Shown here in pieces: positions 40,489-53,249 of a stretch of 64,000 nucleotides of DNA. This DNA comes from a bacterium (lineage in GTDB: Bacteria; Patescibacteriota; Minisyncoccia; Moranbacterales; GWC2-37-73): the NCBI GenBank assembly GCA_003251635.1, contig QKEW01000008.1:33489-97488 (forward strand). Direction: 5' to 3'. Each line of letters starts with the position of its first letter. The stretch's first letter is position 1. Below the pieces are notes generated by a model. That model saw only the letters and a list, made by a program, of their open reading frames with translations. It was not told the origin of the DNA and did no database searches. The translations under genes and the position numbers were made by a program.

Positions 40489-41244
40489 TTATATATTTTT
40501 AATTTCTAACTCTTTAGAGCCTCTCCATGCCAATTCAAAAACAAGTTTCTGAAATTTTGCATATTCATATGATTCAATGAGCATTCCAAACATTTCAGTT
40601 CCATAGGTTGCCACTGCAACCTTATTGCCATATATGTTCACTTCTACATCAATAGGAAAATCTTCTTCGGAAAGTAAGCGTCCTTCGCGCAATTGCTCCT
40701 CATTCTTAACTATATACGGAATTATTTCCTGGACTGCTTTGTAAATCCCGCGAAATTTTATTCCTTTTTCAATTCTTCTTTTAACATAATCTTCTGTATA
40801 TTCCGGCAAATGTTGTGTTATTCCCTCTCCCACATACCCTATAATCTCATCACCTTTTTTAAGACTTTTCAAGCTGTCTTCATACATTTCCCTTATACCC
40901 TCTTTGCCTTCGAAGTATTGGATGAACGGTTTTGATTTGGGAGCGTTATACAAATTCTGTAAAAGAGGCATAGCCTTGTGAATTCTTTCAATTCGCTCTC
41001 TTTGCCTATCTATAAGAGAAAGCGGATCAGCCGGGGAATAATATGACGTCTTACCTTTGATGCTTTTGTGAACCAAGCCGTCTTTCATCAATGAATTGAT
41101 GACGTCATAAGCCGTGGGCCTCTTAATTCCCGCCTTTTTGGCAATCAGATAGGCTGTCGCCCCGCCCAACTCCAAACAAGCCAGATAGACTTCTGCTTTC
41201 TTACCGTCAATGCCTATTTCTTCCAAAATTTTCTCTATTTTCAT
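40489..41244 (-). CDS. TrmB-family transcriptional regulator
   Basis: VYLACLELGG..IKRPTAYD; close paralog of 52500-53249. Confidence 0.9.
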   Translation of the reverse strand: MKIEKILEEIGIDGKKAEVYLACLELGGATAYLIAKKAGIKRPTAYDVINSLMKDGLVHKSIKGKTSYYSPADPLSLIDRQRERIERIHKAMPLLQNLYNAPKSKPFIQYFEGKEGIREMYEDSLKSLKKGDEIIGYVGEGITQHLPEYTEDYVKRRIEKGIKFRGIYKAVQEIIPYIVKNEEQLREGRLLSEEDFPIDVEVNIYGNKVAVATYGTEMFGMLIESYEYAKFQKLVFELAWRGSKELEIKNI

Positions 41245-43577: not shown

Positions 43578-44018
43578 AAGTTCTTTTTTTATTATTTTAA
43601 TTGATTATTTTGATTAAAACAAACCCGTATTGTAATACTGAATCTTGAGGAAAACTAGTAAGGCAATACAGCTCGAACCAGAAATAAAGCCTTACTCAAA
43701 CAATGCAAAATTTTATATAAAAACTTTTCCAACGAAAAAAAAGGCTTAGGTAAGCCTCTATTCGGTGATCATAATTAGTAATCAGAATTGAACCTAAAAA
43801 ATGCTTTGTTTGAAATAAAAATGACACTGTGAGCTGTTTTTACGCTCAAGCTCGAACTTTTTTTGAAAAGAATTTTTAATTTTCCGCTCGGGCGGGCAAA
43901 AAGGGAAAGGGTCTGGGAAAAGGAATTTTTGCCCGCCCTCGCTTTCCGAATCCGATTTTTCCGCCGCCGCCGAATTTCGTGCCAATTTCATTGGCGCGCC
44001 GATCTTATTTTATTAAAA

Positions 44019-44447
44019 CTAATCCAAAAAGTTAGTTCCGGTTTTAATTGCAAAAGATGTTAAGAATAAAAGACCGCCAAAAAAGCATACTTTTGAAAAA
44101 GTACCGCACCATGAAAAAATCAGCTGTTTTCTACTCATTTTTTTCTCTAATAAATTTTTTGGGTCAGGTTTACCAAGATACCGTATCGGATCAAGATGAA
44201 TATATTCCATATGAAATTCATTTCTAATTATAGAGCTTAGCAAAGTCAGTAAAAAATAAATCCAAGAGGTAATCAATATCCATTCATTTGAAATTATTTT
44301 TTCTTGTAAATCAACACTTTTTAAATATCCTAGATAAGTAATACTAAGAACCACAGCCCCACCACTCAAATAAGCAAGATTGTTATAGAAACCAATAAAG
44401 TTTTTCATGCTGTCTCTTAGCTCTTTTCTAATTTCGTGCTGATCCAT
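44019..44447 (-). CDS. Hypothetical membrane protein (element cargo)
   Basis: 3 hydrophobic segments. Confidence 0.7.
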   Translation of the reverse strand: MDQHEIRKELRDSMKNFIGFYNNLAYLSGGAVVLSITYLGYLKSVDLQEKIISNEWILITSWIYFLLTLLSSIIRNEFHMEYIHLDPIRYLGKPDPKNLLEKKMSRKQLIFSWCGTFSKVCFFGGLLFLTSFAIKTGTNFLD

Positions 44448-44502
44448 AGTTTTTTATTGATTATTTCTGATATTTTTTCCCCATCATCTCCATATATAAA
44501 AG

Positions 44503-45165
44503 TCACTCTTTAATAATCATCCATTTTTTCTTTTCATCGCCATACATCACAAAATATATCATCCGTTGTATAACACCAAAATAAATTGGAAATAGGATGA
44601 ACCAACTAAAAAATGACACTATCCAACCCACAATCGTAATTAACCTATGCGAAATATGATCATGTCTCACTTTAGGATAAATTAATCTCCACGCCATAGA
44701 AATAAACTCTTTAAATCCAGTTTTATTCATTGACTCTCTGTTTTTTGCTTTCCGTATTAAAATTATTAACCGCACTATATCAAAAAATATTCCAAAAAAA
44801 ACAAATGTAATGACTACGCCCCATATAGGGAAAAAATACAAAAATGGCACTCCCACAATAATCCACAAGATTGCAACTCCAAAAAATAAAGATATCAAAT
44901 TGCTATCAAATCTAAACTCATGGGCATCAAGTGCTGCAAGTTTTTTGATATTTTTTATTATCCAATAACCAATCAAACTCAATGACACTCCAGCAAAAAG
45001 AATCCAAATTAAAATATCTGTAAATTTTGAATCTCCTTTTAGAATAACAAAATAAAAAACAAGTGAGAGAATAGTAATTCCAACGCCTACTATAAACGCT
45101 GAATTTGCAATAAACTGCATGCGAGAATACATTTTTTGAATTCTTTCATTAAACATATGTTTCAT
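44503..45165 (-). CDS. Hypothetical membrane protein (element cargo)
   Basis: About 5 hydrophobic segments. Confidence 0.7.
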   Translation of the reverse strand: MKHMFNERIQKMYSRMQFIANSAFIVGVGITILSLVFYFVILKGDSKFTDILIWILFAGVSLSLIGYWIIKNIKKLAALDAHEFRFDSNLISLFFGVAILWIIVGVPFLYFFPIWGVVITFVFFGIFFDIVRLIILIRKAKNRESMNKTGFKEFISMAWRLIYPKVRHDHISHRLITIVGWIVSFFSWFILFPIYFGVIQRMIYFVMYGDEKKKWMIIKE

Positions 45166-45190
45166 TAAAAATTTTAATAAATACTAATTG

Positions 45191-46315
45191 CTATTCTTTT
45201 TTGCACTGTTTCTGGTAATATGGAATTGATTTTACAAAATTCAATGCTTTTTCATCTATAAGATCTCCCTCATTTCTTGCTATGACCAATAGAGTTTGAA
45301 ACAATTGCGCAACTTCCTGAGTTTTTGTCATTCTTGATTCTAAGGATTTTTCTTCCTCATCATTTAATACATGGTAAACAAATCTTCCCTCTGAAATAAA
45401 TGCGCTCGCTTCTGCTCTGTAACATCCATCTTCAGAATCAACATCTTCATTATTAGCATACTGAAAAACATGAGTTAATTCATGGCGCAATAAAACTGCA
45501 GTCAATAAATCATCTTTTATGCTGTATTTAGGGGAAACTTTTATCAAATACTCATCTAAATTATGAGAGGGAGAGAAAACAAAGACGCCCTCCGCCCCAT
45601 TAATTGCTTTTCCAGATTCCGAGTATTCTATCTTTAAGCAATTTTTGATATTTTCTAAATTATCAGTTATCCCACTGTCTCCGCGCTGTCGATATCTTTG
45701 TATAATTAAATTAAGAGCGCGATTAAATTCATCTGGCATTTCATATCCGCTGTCTCTAACACAATAAACAGGCATCTCGTTAAAAATAATTAACCACTCA
45801 TCATTAATTTTAATGAATTTTCTATATATTCTTTGGGGATACTCTTTTGAGGCAAGGTCAAAAATACTTGTTTCGTCAATATATCCTATATCATTTTTTA
45901 TGATTACTTTGTTTACTTCTGCTATTTTTCCTTTCTTTAAATCATCTAAAAATATCTTTGATCTTTCGTCCTCTGGATTTTGTTGCGCGTACTCAATTAG
46001 TCGTTGCAATACTGATTCCTGCGAATATAAGGCACCTCGTTTTTCAATATACCTTTCTCTGCTTATTTTATGCTTAGATTCTGGAGATAAATAAAGATCG
46101 TATATTTTTCCAAATTCGTTCTTACTTTCCAATTCAAATATTTCATTAAATCTTTTAGCAAGCTTATCTTCGTCACTAATATTTACAGCAGATAGAGATT
46201 GCTCATGTTTGTTTTTTAAAAAAGAAAGGATTTCTACTCCATAAATTTTGATTGTAATAGCCACAATTACAATCAATGCTACGCTCAAAAAATAATTAGC
46301 GCTTTTCTTATTCAT
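45191..46315 (-). CDS. Membrane-anchored protein with HExxH zincin motif
   Basis: N-terminal TM; LRHELTH...E..AF. Confidence 0.7.
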   Translation of the reverse strand: MNKKSANYFLSVALIVIVAITIKIYGVEILSFLKNKHEQSLSAVNISDEDKLAKRFNEIFELESKNEFGKIYDLYLSPESKHKISRERYIEKRGALYSQESVLQRLIEYAQQNPEDERSKIFLDDLKKGKIAEVNKVIIKNDIGYIDETSIFDLASKEYPQRIYRKFIKINDEWLIIFNEMPVYCVRDSGYEMPDEFNRALNLIIQRYRQRGDSGITDNLENIKNCLKIEYSESGKAINGAEGVFVFSPSHNLDEYLIKVSPKYSIKDDLLTAVLLRHELTHVFQYANNEDVDSEDGCYRAEASAFISEGRFVYHVLNDEEEKSLESRMTKTQEVAQLFQTLLVIARNEGDLIDEKALNFVKSIPYYQKQCKKE

Positions 46316-46327
46316 GGTTTTAAAAAA

Positions 46328-46525
46328 TTATTTAATTAATTCATCAACGCTAACCTCGAGCGCTTTAGAAATTTTCTTAAGCGTATCAAGTGTTGGATTC
46401 TGATTTTTTCCAGCTTCAATCTTGATAATTGTGTTATTGGCAACATCAGCCAATCTCGCCAATTTTTCTTGTGATAATCCCTTTGATTCCCGTAATTTTC
46501 GGAGTGTTTTTTGAATATTTGACAT
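46328..46525 (-). CDS. XRE-family HTH regulator
   Basis: LRKLRESKGLSQEKLA...IE.GK..NPTL.TL. Confidence 0.9.
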   Translation of the reverse strand: MSNIQKTLRKLRESKGLSQEKLARLADVANNTIIKIEAGKNQNPTLDTLKKISKALEVSVDELIK

Positions 46526-47083
46526 ACTTATATTGTAGTAGTAGAATTATAGTATTAGTGCTACTTCCTTTCAACTACTTTGATGCTACACCAAAAATCA
46601 AAAATAGTAAACACGAACGGGAGTTATTTTGTGTTGTGTGCGCACGGGTGGGAGGGGCAAACACAACCACCTTTTTCTTGGCGGCGCTTTTCGCAAAGCG
46701 AAAAACGAAATTCGGCGGCGGCGGAAAAATTGGATTCGGAAAGCGAGGGCGGGCAAAAATTCCTTTTCCCAGACCCTTTCCCTTTTTGCCCGCCCGAGCG
46801 GAAAATTAAAAATTCTTTTCAAAAAAAGTTCGAGCTTGAGCGTAAAAACAGCTCCAGACAGAAAATTGCGATTTCGAAAGCGCCAGCGCCCACTCTTTTT
46901 GCGGTTGAAAGCTGGCGTTTTTGTTTTGGAGAGTCCAGTTCATTTGAGCGAAGCTCAAAGTTGAATAAAATTCAACAGCCGATTTTTTGCCTTTTCGCCA
47001 AAGGCGAAAATTCCAAATTTGGAGAATAAAAGAAAGCGCCAATTTTTTGCCCAAAAGCGATTTCAATAATCAAAAAAAACAAT

Positions 47084-48559
47084 ATGAATCAAACCAAAAA
47101 GTTTTTTCTCTATGCCAGAAAATCAACGGATGAAGCGGAAAGGCAAGTTTTGTCCATTGAAGCGCAACTGACCGAAGTTCGGGAATTTGCGCAGAAGGAA
47201 GGAGTTTTCATTGCGCGGGAATTTGTGGAAACAAAGTCCGCCAAAAAGCCAGGGCGGGATGTTTTTGAAAAAATGATTTCTGGCGTTGAGAAAGGCGAAG
47301 CCATGGGAATTTTAGCGTGGCATCCTGATAGATTAGCAAGAAATGCGATTGACGCTGGAAAAATAATAAATTTATTGGATATAGGAAAATTGGAAACGCT
47401 AAAATTCCCGACTTTTTGGTTTGATAAAACTCCACAAGGACTTTTCATGCTCTCTATCGCTTTTGGGCAATCCAAATACTATATTGATAATCTTTCAGAG
47501 AATATCAAACGAGGATTGCGCCAGAAGCTCCGAAATGGCGTCTATCCTGGATTTGCTCCCATTGGATATACAAATGAGCTTCGCAATCATACAATCATCA
47601 AAGACCCCGAGAATTGGCAGCTTGTGGCCAAACTTTTTGAAGAATACGCGACTGGCAAATATACCTTGGAGCAAATCCAAAAATTGGCGCTTTCTTTGGG
47701 CTTGATGAGCCGACGATCAAAAAAGACTTTGTCACTTTCAAGAATCCAAAGAATGTTGAGTAATCCTTTCTATTACGGATTGTTCCAATTCAAAAATGAA
47801 ATTTACGAAGGTAATCACGAGCCAATAATTTCCAAGCAACTTTTTGAAAAAGTGCAACGGATAATGGCGGATCGCGGAAAACCAAGAAAAGAAAAACCAA
47901 ACTATGGCTTTGGATTTCTGGGAATTTTCAAATGCGGAGAATGCGGACGATCCATCACTGCTGAACAGCACATCAAGAAAAGCGGTTTGGTTTTTCGCCA
48001 TTACCGTTGCACCAAAAAGAATGTTGATTGCTCACAAAAATATGTGAGCGAAAAAGACTTGCATTTGCAAATCAATCAGATTTTTCAAAAAGTTGCTTTG
48101 CCTCCTGAATGGCTGTCACCGATTTTAGCTAAACTGGACGAGGAAGAAAAAGAGGTTTCCCAAAAATCCCGCTCTTTCGCCCAAAATATGGAAAAGGAAA
48201 TTTCGGAAATTGAAAACAAAGTTTCACGACTTTTGGATATGCAGTTGGAAAATGAAATAACCCTGGCAGAATACAAAGAGAAAAAAGAAAAACTTCTGAA
48301 TCAAAAAACAGATTTAAAGCAGAAACTTTCGGATTTTGGGCGAAAAGGAAATTATTGGCTCGAACCGATGAGAAATTTCATTTTGTCGGCTCATCAAGCC
48401 AATTCCTTAATACATTCTGAAAATTTGGAAGAGAAGCGAAGCTTCTTGCAAAAAATCGGCTCGAACTGGACTCTCCAAAACAAAAACGCCAGCTTTCAAC
48501 CGCAAAAAGAGTGGGCGCTGGCGCTTTCGAAATCGCAATTTTCTGTCTGGAGCGGGTAA
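47084..48559 (+). CDS. Large serine recombinase (resolvase + recombinase + Zn ribbon + coiled coil)
   Basis: YARKST, DRLARN, NPFYYG, HEPIIS, CGECG...YRC; stop codon lies inside tRNA-Gly. Confidence 0.95.
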   Translation: MNQTKKFFLYARKSTDEAERQVLSIEAQLTEVREFAQKEGVFIAREFVETKSAKKPGRDVFEKMISGVEKGEAMGILAWHPDRLARNAIDAGKIINLLDIGKLETLKFPTFWFDKTPQGLFMLSIAFGQSKYYIDNLSENIKRGLRQKLRNGVYPGFAPIGYTNELRNHTIIKDPENWQLVAKLFEEYATGKYTLEQIQKLALSLGLMSRRSKKTLSLSRIQRMLSNPFYYGLFQFKNEIYEGNHEPIISKQLFEKVQRIMADRGKPRKEKPNYGFGFLGIFKCGECGRSITAEQHIKKSGLVFRHYRCTKKNVDCSQKYVSEKDLHLQINQIFQKVALPPEWLSPILAKLDEEEKEVSQKSRSFAQNMEKEISEIENKVSRLLDMQLENEITLAEYKEKKEKLLNQKTDLKQKLSDFGRKGNYWLEPMRNFILSAHQANSLIHSENLEEKRSFLQKIGSNWTLQNKNASFQPQKEWALALSKSQFSVWSG

Positions 48560-48622
48560 GCAGAATCGAACTGCCGTTTCATCCTTGGCAAGGACGTGTA
48601 ATAGCCACTATACGATACCCGC
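48548..48622 (-). tRNA. tRNA-Gly(GCC)
   Basis: GCGGGTA...TACCCGC-T-CCA, loop TTGCCAA. Confidence 0.95.
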
Positions 48623-48647: not shown

Positions 48648-48742
48648 CCCGCCCCAGTCTTAAACCAAGGCTAACTATTTTATTTTTATCTGCAATAAAC
48701 TGTGGGACCAGCAGGATTCGAACCTACGACCAAGCGGTTATG

Positions 48743-49369
48743 CTTCTCACTGCCACTTTCGCAACTTCTTTCGAATTTGTGAGCTGGACTATCCCTTCAC
48801 CCGTAAAACGGGGTCTGCCATCTAGTCTCTACACCTTCTTTGTTTGTACCATAGAATATGGAACATGCAAAGCTTGGCTCGGGATTGTCATAGATATAAA
48901 TATCCTTAGATTTCCCCGAATTTGACAGAATTCACTTGAAAATTACTTTTCAAGCAGCCCTGCAAATATCATTCATGTTATGTTATAATTAAATTATGAA
49001 AAAAATCATAACTTGTACCATTTGCAAAAAGACATTGTCTGGAAAACAAACAAAATTTTGTTCTCCAAAATGCAGAAATAAATCCCTGCAATCCTATCCT
49101 AGCCAACAAATTCGTGGCCTGAAAAGAAAGCGTCTTCTAGTAAAGCTAATGGGTGGATGCTGTTCAATTTGTGGCTATAGTAAAAATTTTGCTGCACTAA
49201 CATTTCATCATTTGAACCCAAAAAAGAAATCTTTCCAATTAGATCTAAGATCCCTATCCAATAGAAAAATGTCTAGGATTGATTCGGAAATGAAAAAATG
49301 CGTCTTGGTTTGCCAAAATTGCCACACAGAATTACATAATCCACAACACAATTTAGAATGAACTTTTTG
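48743..49369 (-). ncRNA. Group I intron (IC3-like), 627 nt, inserted after U33
   Basis: P AATTCGGGGAA, Q AATCCCGAGCC, R GTAGAGACTA, S GATAGTCC; terminal G; IGS GGCTGCTT pairs exon AGGCGGCT with U.G. Confidence 0.9.
48996..49361 (+). CDS. HNH homing endonuclease, antisense within intron L1
   Basis: CSICGY...LTFHH...CVLVCQNCHTELH plus N-terminal CxxC..C...C; TGnTATAAT at 48981-48989. Confidence 0.85.
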   Translation: MKKIITCTICKKTLSGKQTKFCSPKCRNKSLQSYPSQQIRGLKRKRLLVKLMGGCCSICGYSKNFAALTFHHLNPKKKSFQLDLRSLSNRKMSRIDSEMKKCVLVCQNCHTELHNPQHNLE

Positions 49370-49418
49370 AGCCGCCTGCTCTACCACTGAGCTATGGTCC
49401 CAATTCTCTCCTTTTTTG

Positions 49419-49732
49419 TGCCTCGGGTCAGAATTGAACTGACGACACAAGGATTTTCCTGTTTATTTCTCTTGAATTTCTTCAAGGATCGGACTATATC
49501 ATCTTCGTTCCCAAGGGAGTGCGAAGTCGGGCGCTTTTGCAAGATTATTGTTGGGACTCACTTGCTAGTCTCTACACCTTCCTCAAAACTAAAACCCTTT
49601 GAGGCTTGGCTCGGGATTGCCTTGTTTTTTCAAAAAATTTAGGTTTCCCCGAATTCACCCGATTTTTAATTCTACATTACTATAGAATGGACCGAAATTC
49701 AGTCCTTTGCTCTACCACTGAGCTACCGAGGC
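49419..49732 (-). tRNA. tRNA-Phe(GAA) split by a group I intron (exons 49701-49732 and 49419-49458)
   Basis: Joined exons GCCTCGGTAGCTCAGTGGTAGAGCAAAGGACT^GAAAATCCTTGTGTCGTCAGTTCAATTCTGACCCGAGGCA. Confidence 0.9.
49459..49700 (-). ncRNA. Group I intron (IC3-like), 242 nt, inserted after U33
   Basis: AATTCGGGGAA, CAATCCCGAGCCAAGC, GTAGAGACTAG, GATATAGTCC; IGS GGTCC pairs GGACT; terminal G. Confidence 0.9.
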
Positions 49733-49777
49733 CTGCATAATGCTGCGCGCAGTTCATCATCTGATACTTTTACGCGG

Positions 49778-52499: not shown

Positions 52500-53249
52500 T
52501 CAATTTAATTGTAACCCTTCTCCGCCTCTCCAAGCAAGCTCAAAAACAGCTTTTTGAGACTTGGCAATTTCTGCGGATTCAATAATCATCCCAAACATTT
52601 CTTGCCCATAACTGGCAATAGCGACTTTGTTTTTATAGATATTGGTTTCATTGGAAACTGGAAAATCTTTTTCATTCAAAATCCGGACAACTCTAAGTTG
52701 TTGTTGATTATTTTTCATATAATCCATTATTCCGGGAAGCGCCTTATAAATTCCTCTAAGAACAATGCCTTTCTCCACTCTTCTTTTGACATAATCATCC
52801 GCATAGTCCAAAAGATTATCAATTACCCCTTCGCCCACATAAGCCAAAATTTCATCTCCTTTTTTCAAACTCCTTAAACTGTCTTCATACATTTCTTGAA
52901 TTCCATCACGCCCCTCAAAATATCTAATAAAAGGTTTGACCTTGGGAGAATTGTATAGGTTTTGCAAAACTGGTAAAACATTTTCGATTTTTCGCACCTT
53001 TTCTCTGGTTTTATTTACCAAAATTTGCGGGTCAGTGGGAAAATAGTGCGTGACTGAACCCTTGATATTTTTATACACCAAACCCTCACGCATAAGGTGA
53101 TTAATAATATCGTAAGCCGTTGGACGCTTTATGCCAGACTTTTTGGCAATCAAATAACCCGTAGCCCCTCCCAATTCCAAGCAAGCTAAATATATTTCAG
53201 CTTTTTTGCCATCAACTCCAATTTGTTTCAAAACCTCATTTATTTGCAT
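52500..53249 (-). CDS. TrmB-family transcriptional regulator
   Basis: IYLACLELGG..IKRPTAYD; KPFIRYFEG. Confidence 0.9.
   Translation of the reverse strand: MQINEVLKQIGVDGKKAEIYLACLELGGATGYLIAKKSGIKRPTAYDIINHLMREGLVYKNIKGSVTHYFPTDPQILVNKTREKVRKIENVLPVLQNLYNSPKVKPFIRYFEGRDGIQEMYEDSLRSLKKGDEILAYVGEGVIDNLLDYADDYVKRRVEKGIVLRGIYKALPGIMDYMKNNQQQLRVVRILNEKDFPVSNETNIYKNKVAIASYGQEMFGMIIESAEIAKSQKAVFELAWRGGEGLQLN

Follow-up and report, generated by a model that had tools for sequence, protein, structure and literature searches.

A tRNA-inserted serine integrase island of Patescibacteria that holds an inverted copy of its joined ends and is probably selected to fold as single-stranded DNA

We analysed a window of 64,000 nucleotides on contig QKEW01000008.1 (assembly GCA_003251635.1) from a nearly complete patescibacterial genome of 0.91 Mb. 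The window harbors an island of about 4.7 kb (43831–48553) of the large-serine-recombinase type, which is located in the 3' end of a tRNA-Gly gene. The integrase gene of this island and its leader pair in a series of nested stems, and it is very likely that this pairing is maintained by selection for a fold of the single DNA strand. The island also holds an internal, inverted copy of its own joined ends. As a route of transfer that we regard as possible rather than probable, we propose that the strand closes into a circle on this internal copy, which would act as a splint, and that the circle then integrates conventionally.

Nested pairing in the integrase region

The open reading frame (ORF) of the integrase occupies 47084–48559 on the plus strand and encodes 491 aa. 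Its last 30 codons constitute the outer A arm (48463–48553, attL-like, at the tRNA end of the island), whose 91 nt are 100% complementary to an inner A arm at 46851–46941. An earlier note on this DNA had claimed that pairing continues beyond the 91-nt repeat, and all the pairings it named are present as perfect Watson-Crick matches. The leader (46942–47083, plus strand) consists of three mini-hairpins alternating with four antisense clamps. The clamps are 46977–46990 to 48448–48461 (14 nt, one longer than claimed), 47011–47020 to 48421–48430, 47029–47047 to 47679–47697 (19 nt) and 47047–47061 to 47456–47470 (15 nt, sharing base 47047 with the 19-nt stem). Mini-hairpins that the note had described were found at 46943–46959 (loop GAA), 46992–47010 (AAA) and 48432–48446 (GAA). 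Nine further perfect stems, which the note had not listed, connect the ORF with itself; given as first/last base and length, these are 47088/47425 (15 nt), 47305/47409 (14), 47548/47679 (12), 47699/48400 (16), 47793/48384 (12), 47818/48362 (16), 47834/48098 (18), 47891/47996 (12) and 48175/48345 (13). In the DNA minimum-energy fold the pairings fit one structure, in the nested order that had been described.

Between the 91-nt arms there are 12 perfect stems of at least 12 nt, whereas 1000 synonymous-codon shuffles contained 0.57 on average and never more than 4. For the nine stems inside the ORF alone, the shuffles gave a mean of 0.18 and a maximum of 3. The background in the same genome is 0.32 stems per 1520-nt segment (mean of 1169 segments), and the sole segments scoring above the integrase region contain a cluster of palindromic repeats, which from its motif we take to be parS-like. 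The folding energy of the plus strand was −294.7 kcal/mol with DNA parameters, against −188.4 ± 8.7 kcal/mol for eight shuffles, and RNA parameters gave z-scores of −13.2 and −11.7 for the two strands (12 shuffles). With either parameter set the real sequence is far more stable than its codon-preserving shuffles. Helices of at least 10 bp cover 390 of 1521 bases.

It had also been argued that short, imperfect matches speak against an assembly artefact. An artefact is indeed ruled out by the double depth of the arms and by their recurrence: in independent contigs of sequencing run X1, which may come from the source sample, the arms are collapsed into pieces of 91 and 123 nt with a depth of 54–55 compared with 20–28 for their neighbors, and the arm layout recurs in homologs. 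The stems, however, are perfect and not imperfect.

Conservation of the pairing in homologs

We compared the island with a family of 160 loci (80 from GTDB, 78 metagenomic, one viral and the window itself; near-duplicates are included). Changes in the helices were counted in 48 disjoint pairs of relatives that are 70–95% identical. While 4690 helix cells were unchanged and 178 had changed on one side, 36 had changed on both sides, where 3.2 were expected. These double changes restored the pair in 29 of 36 cases, on 27 column pairs, and 26 of the 29 came with a change of amino acid. Four-fold sites change at 0.038 in helices and at 0.288 outside (0.026 versus 0.319 at conserved residues), which amounts to a 7- to 12-fold slowing.

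A separate pair count in 12 close relatives, for which the structure was taken from the sequence of the window, gave 93% paired cells and 25 pairs with double changes, many of them in the leader hairpins. None of 500 shuffles reached four of the five measures used, and 13 of 500 reached the fifth; with the structure slid along the sequence, 33–55% of the cells were paired. Both tests that the earlier note had named for its proposal of a compact single-stranded DNA form, folding against codon-preserving shuffles and compensatory changes in homologs, came out in its favor, and we consider selection for such a fold very likely.

Signature of DNA rather than RNA

The fold appears to be one of DNA and not of RNA, since G-T pairs are not preferred, the loops are triloops of the DNA type and a conserved junction cannot form in the mRNA. 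One-sided helix changes gave 57 G-T and 51 A-C oppositions (32 and 44 in retained helices), while the position-defined stems of 199 tRNAs from the same loci, which served as control, gave 120 G-T and 9 A-C. In a census of 52 non-redundant members the commonest loop was c(GAA)g, with 30 cases in leaders and 13 in ORFs versus 0.7 in shuffled sequences, followed by c(AAA)g; there were 17 GNRA loops and no UUCG loops. The loops are biased to the integrase-sense strand, with 81 GNA versus 18 of the complement TNC. Hairpins of the d(GCGNAGC) type are far more stable as DNA than as RNA, exclude single-stranded DNA-binding protein (SSB) and have been found at priming sites of single-stranded phage DNA (PMC13037366). 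The conserved four-way junction joins the two ends of the cargo and cannot be part of an mRNA from the integrated island. Silencing of the integrase at the RNA level, which had been offered as an alternative in the earlier note, is disfavored by these features.

Several close relatives (L001, L002, L003, L084, L086, L089–L091) have an insert of 150–180 nt in the leader just upstream of the integrase start, which is absent from the window. Its first part resembles a promoter, and a self-complementary segment comes after it, variable but with the closing stem retained. The insert has no Rfam match; it is possible that it is a regulatory RNA.

An internal inverted copy of the joined ends

The far end of the island is formed by the outer B arm (43831–43980, attR-like), 150 nt that differ by one mismatch from the inner B arm at 46705–46854. 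The inner B arm abuts the inner A arm, and the two make up an internal inverted attP-like site (46705–46941, plus strand). The 150-nt repeat pair encloses a cargo region of 2.7 kb, and the 91-nt pair encloses the integrase. All three junctions have the core GCTC: tRNA to A (48553–48550, minus strand), B to chromosome (43834–43831, minus strand) and B to A (46851–46854). Since the repeats abut at this shared core, the island holds an internal inverted copy of its own joined ends. The pattern of a shared core recurs across homologs, and in every element examined the two repeats meet exactly at the crossover core. Near the core, the B arm mimics the T-arm of the tRNA.

In the predicted fold, the plus strand forms a dumbbell: an open loop of cargo and a branched loop of integrase sequence are joined by a 241-bp stem that is nicked at the crossover. 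Each end of this stem would carry a four-way junction with small hairpins as a cap. Towards the cargo, the outer half of the predicted junction is a small hairpin with a 6-nt closing strand (43981–44001, plus strand), and the inner half comprises a 6-nt closing strand and a 7-bp hairpin with an AAA loop (46682–46704, plus strand). The two hairpins are unlike in sequence, yet pairing resumes behind them. The same holds for many homologs, which keep the geometry of this junction with different hairpin sequences. The cargo loop itself is not self-complementary, with no stem of at least 12 nt in 2724 nt; the cargo loops of homologs have 0–7 stems, with low numbers in most.

Changes in the arms are mirrored in 617 of 712 changed pairs for A and 52 of 58 for B, compared with only 29 of 214 in the inner helices. 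Arm identity is 99% within an element and 57% between elements (30 arms of the Gly class). From such mirrored but freely changing arms we infer that one arm is copied on the other. A search for single-copy matches of long arms, which bears on the direction of this copying, gave nothing.

An antisense ORF (46806–47066) overlaps the internal site. Read in the integrase frame, the antisense B arm has no stop over 10 codons in 82 of 83 loci (64 and 52 of 83 for the other frames), and it encodes a conserved end of 10–20 residues that represents the last helix of the integrase. Natural tandem copies (e.g. L157) encode this helix as well. This conserved end is modeled as a final helix with a predicted local distance difference test score of about 60–70, and alignments from sequence searches end before it. 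The reading frames show that only the joined-ends form encodes the conserved last helix. The integrase gene of the integrated island is thus truncated. The joined form, being the only one with a full-length gene, must be transcribed at some time, for which the other strand is needed.

Distribution of the family

A arms were found in 84 of 88 testable loci and both repeats in 40 of 160, or in 22 of the 37 loci with at least 7 kb of upstream sequence. Across the family the arms are perfect and 91–350 nt long. Among 111 usable homologs, i.e. those with an intact ORF and arms, 102 have at least five stems, and the median number of stems reaching 12 nt is 11. Crossing is rare in these homologs, with 66 of 6196 stem pairs versus 33% at random. 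The same helices occur at aligned positions down to 50% amino-acid identity.

In an even draw of 150 Patescibacteria genomes, 29 carry a member at 44–54% identity. A arms are present in 24 of these 29, at least four ORF stems in 25, and a tRNA gene at the 3' end in 25, of 12 kinds. L079 appears at the 3' end of what we take to be a tmRNA-like gene instead of a tRNA. Four more distant serine recombinases of the same hosts (30–35% identity) have 0–1 stems. A second family of tRNA-adjacent large serine recombinases, at 30–35% identity, has neither long repeats nor stems (G000 C6 121201–122655; L164, L166, L176) and can serve as an unfolded control.

Orientation and unusual loci

The tRNA gene lies at the 3' end of the integrase in 112 of 160 loci and at the 5' end in only three; two loci have tRNA genes on both sides and 43 have none, mostly at contig ends. 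In the even draw, 25 members have the tRNA at the 3' end versus one in the other orientation. Broken integrases are found in three of five distinct loci with an upstream tRNA versus three of 109 in the usual orientation; this comparison is post hoc, L104 lacks arms and may not belong to the family, and L009 and L093 are nearly the same locus. L127 is a flip of the whole element with an intact, full-length gene. A gene for a helix-turn-helix (HTH) protein lies beside the inner arm in 24 of the 25 elements in which it is detectable. The cargo has flipped alone in one of the 25 (L048), and probably also in L002 and L129.

In L093 and L112, the integrase module lies between two different, oppositely oriented tRNA genes for the same amino acid. 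These loci were considered as replicated hairpin intermediates, which could be ruled out. Their flanks are only 80–85% alike, so they represent rearrangements between two tRNA genes. This suggests that the internal site or an arm can recombine with a second tRNA locus, inverting segments of the chromosome. L084, L116, L125 and L144 were rejected as circles: they have mismatched arms or run on into other DNA and are perhaps tandems or chimeras. L107 and L141 carry an integrase module at each contig end, with perfect inverted repeats of 2.0–2.1 kb that reflect either an assembly collapse or a composite element. One X3 contig joins 46941 to 48462 on the opposite strand; as either a flip or a collapsed 91-nt repeat could give this join, and the depth is patchy, it was not counted. 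The contig records examined from X1 and X2 did not include a piece bearing the integrase. In the genome of the window, the folded strand is the template of the leading strand according to skew and dnaA position. A link to the replication strand was rejected as a family feature, with negative skew in 46 of 77 homolog flanks.

Integrase, target and cargo of the island

The integrase has the Pfam domains Resolvase, Recombinase and Zn ribbon. Its catalytic domain (PF00239, E 3e-21) contains the Y-x-R-x-S motif, whose Y, R and S are invariant in 45 aligned family members; PF07508, PF13408 and a coiled coil are also present, and Foldseek matched the structure model to serine-integrase structures (E 2e-22). 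By its predicted domain set and modeled fold, it is an ordinary large serine recombinase. The target gene, tRNA-Gly(GCC) at 48548–48622 on the minus strand, is intact, with the insertion within its last bases, and the integrase stop codon (48557–48559) lies inside it on the opposite strand. Unoccupied tRNA-Gly genes of relatives match the reconstructed empty site over its first bases; among these genes, no empty locus matching it in full was found.

The first cargo gene (46328–46525, minus strand) lies just inside the inner B arm, divergent from the integrase. It encodes the HTH protein, 65 aa of XRE type (Pfam HTH_3, E 6e-18), which is likely a repressor, and it occupies the same place in 39 of 72 homologs tested. 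Overlapping divergent sigma-70-like promoters are predicted at 46519–46574 from consensus matches only: one on the plus strand facing the integrase (46519–46547) and one on the minus strand facing the HTH gene (46574–46546), with 11 of 12 consensus bases each. The scan gave 10 sites compared with 15 expected by chance, and only these two exceed 9 of 12. The remaining cargo (44019–46315, minus strand) comprises three ORFs of 374, 220 and 142 aa, for which profile searches gave no family matches.

Relatives of the integrase are found mostly in genomes labelled Patescibacteria. As for possible carriers, viral contigs gave one distant, incomplete match to the integrase, and a plasmid search gave generic recombinases only (best match 27.5%).

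The only known structured RNAs found by Rfam in the window are tRNAs and two group I introns (84 and 87 bits), all outside the island. Both introns split a tRNA in the anticodon loop, and both split tRNAs were missed by ARAGORN. One is a tRNA with anticodon CAT (48703–49402, minus strand), whose intron carries an ORF of 121 aa for an HNH protein (48996–49361), and the other is a tRNA-Phe (49417–49735, minus strand). Paralogous TrmB-family regulators (40489–41244 and 52500–53249), which share 72% of their DNA letters over 194 nt, flank the island region. A cluster of nine or more palindromic 16-mers, presumably of the parS type by their motif, is located at about 101300–102700 of G000 C16 (L081 3450–4690); the distance to the island is 20 kb and that to dnaA 21 kb.

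A possible route of transfer and its alternatives

In the route that we tentatively propose, the island would move between cells in single-stranded form, for which natural transformation (or transfer resembling conjugation) is the simplest means. The host genome has ComEC and DprA, and Saccharibacteria are naturally competent (PMC10633639); a conjugation-like secretion system would be the other possible source of a single strand. The stems of the integrase gene and the four-way junctions would zip the strand, placing the outer A and B arms nick to nick on the 241-nt internal template. Host enzymes could trim the flanking flaps, fill in on the template and ligate, with no recombinase required, and in doing so would make one arm a copy of the other. 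The GAA mini-hairpins may serve as priming sites for the second strand, and once this is made, the circle would express full-length integrase and be inserted at the tRNA end by ordinary four-strand chemistry. Insertion would remove the last helix and thereby likely switch the enzyme off. The opposite orientation would leave a full-length gene downstream of the tRNA, and such insertions would mostly be lost. In integrons, full exchange on a folded single strand yields abortive linear products with closed ends (PMC3458562). Given such products and the ordinary fold of the serine integrase, a double-stranded circle would be the simpler substrate. The folded strand is also of coding sense, so that the integrase can be transcribed only from the other strand.

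Several points weigh against this picture. The folded strand, the circle, a transcript and the activity are predictions rather than observations. The junction of a circle would be letter-identical to the internal site and therefore invisible to short reads, and no empty-site joint was listed in the portions covered (47–100%) of four sequencing runs. Flap trimming and fill-in explain the copying of B more easily than that of a whole A arm. The other strand folds almost as strongly as DNA (−283.5 versus −178.8 ± 10.6 kcal/mol), and GNRA-type tetraloops are somewhat enriched (12 versus 3.3 in shuffled sequences). Exceptions with 1–3 stems exist, and L070, L076 and L079 have arms but one stem each, so that the inner fold is not obligatory. 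As the homologs are related, all counts overstate their independence. Finally, a circle with two equal sites predicts equal orientations, whereas 112 versus 3 were seen. The skew thus has to be explained by selection, with five loci as support.

The fixed orientation would be explained directly, and better, if the folded strand itself were the substrate, with the integrase exchanging one strand between the 241-bp stem and the tRNA site. Replication would then resolve the junction, as for CTX phage and integron cassettes, and the reverse reaction would peel the strand out. Besides the orientation counts (112 versus 3 and 25 versus 1) and the placement of the HTH gene (24 of 25), the loop bias to one strand (81 GNA to 18 TNC) fits this idea, and there are precedents for folded-strand substrates (PMC3458562, PMC8191803). 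All these precedents, however, involve tyrosine or HUH enzymes. Serine recombinases act by cutting all four strands, followed by rotation; a one-strand exchange is to our knowledge not known for them, and the integrase shows their ordinary domain set and fold. As the folded strand is the coding strand, no integrase could be made without a complementary strand or a helper copy. Exchange of one strand does not by itself explain the copying of the arms, the flanks show no association with the direction of replication (negative skew in 46 of 77), and the broken genes in loci with an upstream tRNA offer another explanation for the orientation bias. We regard this alternative as unlikely, if still a serious one.

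Less likely still, the DNA fold could serve for protection (from nucleases, SSB or RecA) or for second-strand priming, with mobility through an ordinary double-stranded circle. In that case the internal site and the mirrored arms would arise incidentally, and template switching within the folded strand would keep them identical. The DNA signature would be the same, fast-evolving but mirrored arms are as expected from gene conversion, and the rare independent cargo flips (L048; probably L002 and L129) show arm-to-arm recombination. In addition, such mini-hairpins bind SSB poorly (PMC13037366). This explanation leaves unaccounted for, however, that the two repeats join precisely at the crossover core in all elements examined and that the cargo, although it is the larger part, stays unfolded.

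It is improbable that the fold acts in the mRNA, where pairing between leader and ORF would block translation or invite RNase III and so silence the integrated integrase, as in lambda sib retroregulation. A predicted transcript from 46519–46547 includes the leader and the ORF together with both A arms, and with RNA parameters it is predicted to fold strongly as well (z −13). Codons 2–7 lie within a stem, and the loop bias is on the plus strand, the sense of the mRNA. On the other hand, G-U pairs are not tolerated (57:51, or 32:44 in retained helices, versus 120:9 in tRNA), and the loops are triloops with no UUCG among them. The B stem and the cargo-end junction are conserved even though they are impossible in the transcript, and helices from the middle to the end of the gene by far exceed the needs of silencing.

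Artefact or chance as the source of the main features is refuted. Assemblers are indeed confused by inverted repeats, contigs of many homologs are broken within the arms, and some of the flipped or tandem forms are possible chimeras. However, the collapsed arms have double depth, and assembly cannot produce short scattered stems, junctions with non-identical hairpins or compensatory changes; unrelated serine recombinases of the same hosts have 0–1 stems.

It is unusual for long-range pairing of the DNA strand of a protein gene to constrain the codons of that gene, and even the amino acids it encodes. If the proposed circularization on the internal template takes place, an island without transfer or replication genes could start up from naked single-stranded DNA, and the integrase together with the donor design could be used for inserting single-stranded DNA at tRNA sites. 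With many tRNA targets and variable cargo, the family may be a principal channel of gene flow for a large section of bacterial diversity that can hardly be cultivated.

Comparison with known systems

The island shares its catalytic, recombinase, zinc-ribbon and coiled-coil domains and the short core at its ends with the large serine integrases of the SPbeta/A118/Bxb1/phiC31 type. The attachment sites of such integrases are usually about 50 bp. The island differs in its second, inverted internal site, in its perfect arms (91–350 nt in the family) and in a gene that is probably selected to fold, and it has no phage or plasmid context in the viral-contig and plasmid searches described above.

As in the Dehalococcoides ssrA islands with DsiB (PMC3146451) and in staphylococcal SCC/Ccr, the 3' end of the integrase overlaps attL; the integrase may be complete only on the circle or in tandem, elements stack in tandem and transfer genes are absent. 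For DsiB, the integrated gene has likewise been proposed to be truncated (PMC3146451). Unlike the DsiB islands, the island targets tRNA-Gly and not ssrA, and it has a single-gene module instead of one with six genes, the only companions of the integrase being one HTH gene and three ORFs without family matches. Its family, moreover, hits at least 12 kinds of tRNA. In the main text of the DsiB paper the word "inverted" is absent and no fold is described (PMC3146451). Membership in SCC/Ccr was rejected, with 97, 70 and 44 bits for CcrA/B/C versus cut-offs of 900, 700 and 900.

Integron attC, CTX attP(+) and IS200/IS605 sites become duplex only when one strand folds (PMC3458562), as is predicted here from the perfect arms, and integron cassettes can arrive by conjugation or natural transformation (PMC8191803). 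These systems use tyrosine or HUH enzymes and short local hairpins (PMC3458562), whereas the island has a serine recombinase, its coding sequence is predicted to fold, and its 241-bp stem arises from an exact internal copy of the joined ends. No tyrosine recombinase domain was found in the five ORFs of the island, nor did these give a Pfam or NCBIfam match above cut-off to an HUH transposase, Rep or relaxase. Strand-biased circularizing integrative elements (SE) also lack transfer genes and treat one strand differently, but they depend on intA, tfp, intB and srap and occur only in Gammaproteobacteria (PMC10214605). This module is absent from the island judging by its ORF content, with no separate profile search for these genes. 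Mini-hairpins of DNA with GNA or GNNA loops on one strand are known from the phage G4 origin, RSF1010 ssiA and the N4 promoter (PMC13037366), while those of the island cap the branches of a predicted 1.7-kb fold with a protein gene inside it.

The literature searched, which left subscription papers and bioRxiv supplements out of reach, contained no description of the element, and the terms recombinase, integrase and inverted do not occur in a study that surveyed gene transfer across 125 genomes of Patescibacteria (PMC12455944). As an enzyme the integrase belongs to a familiar type; the architecture of the island matches none of the systems compared.

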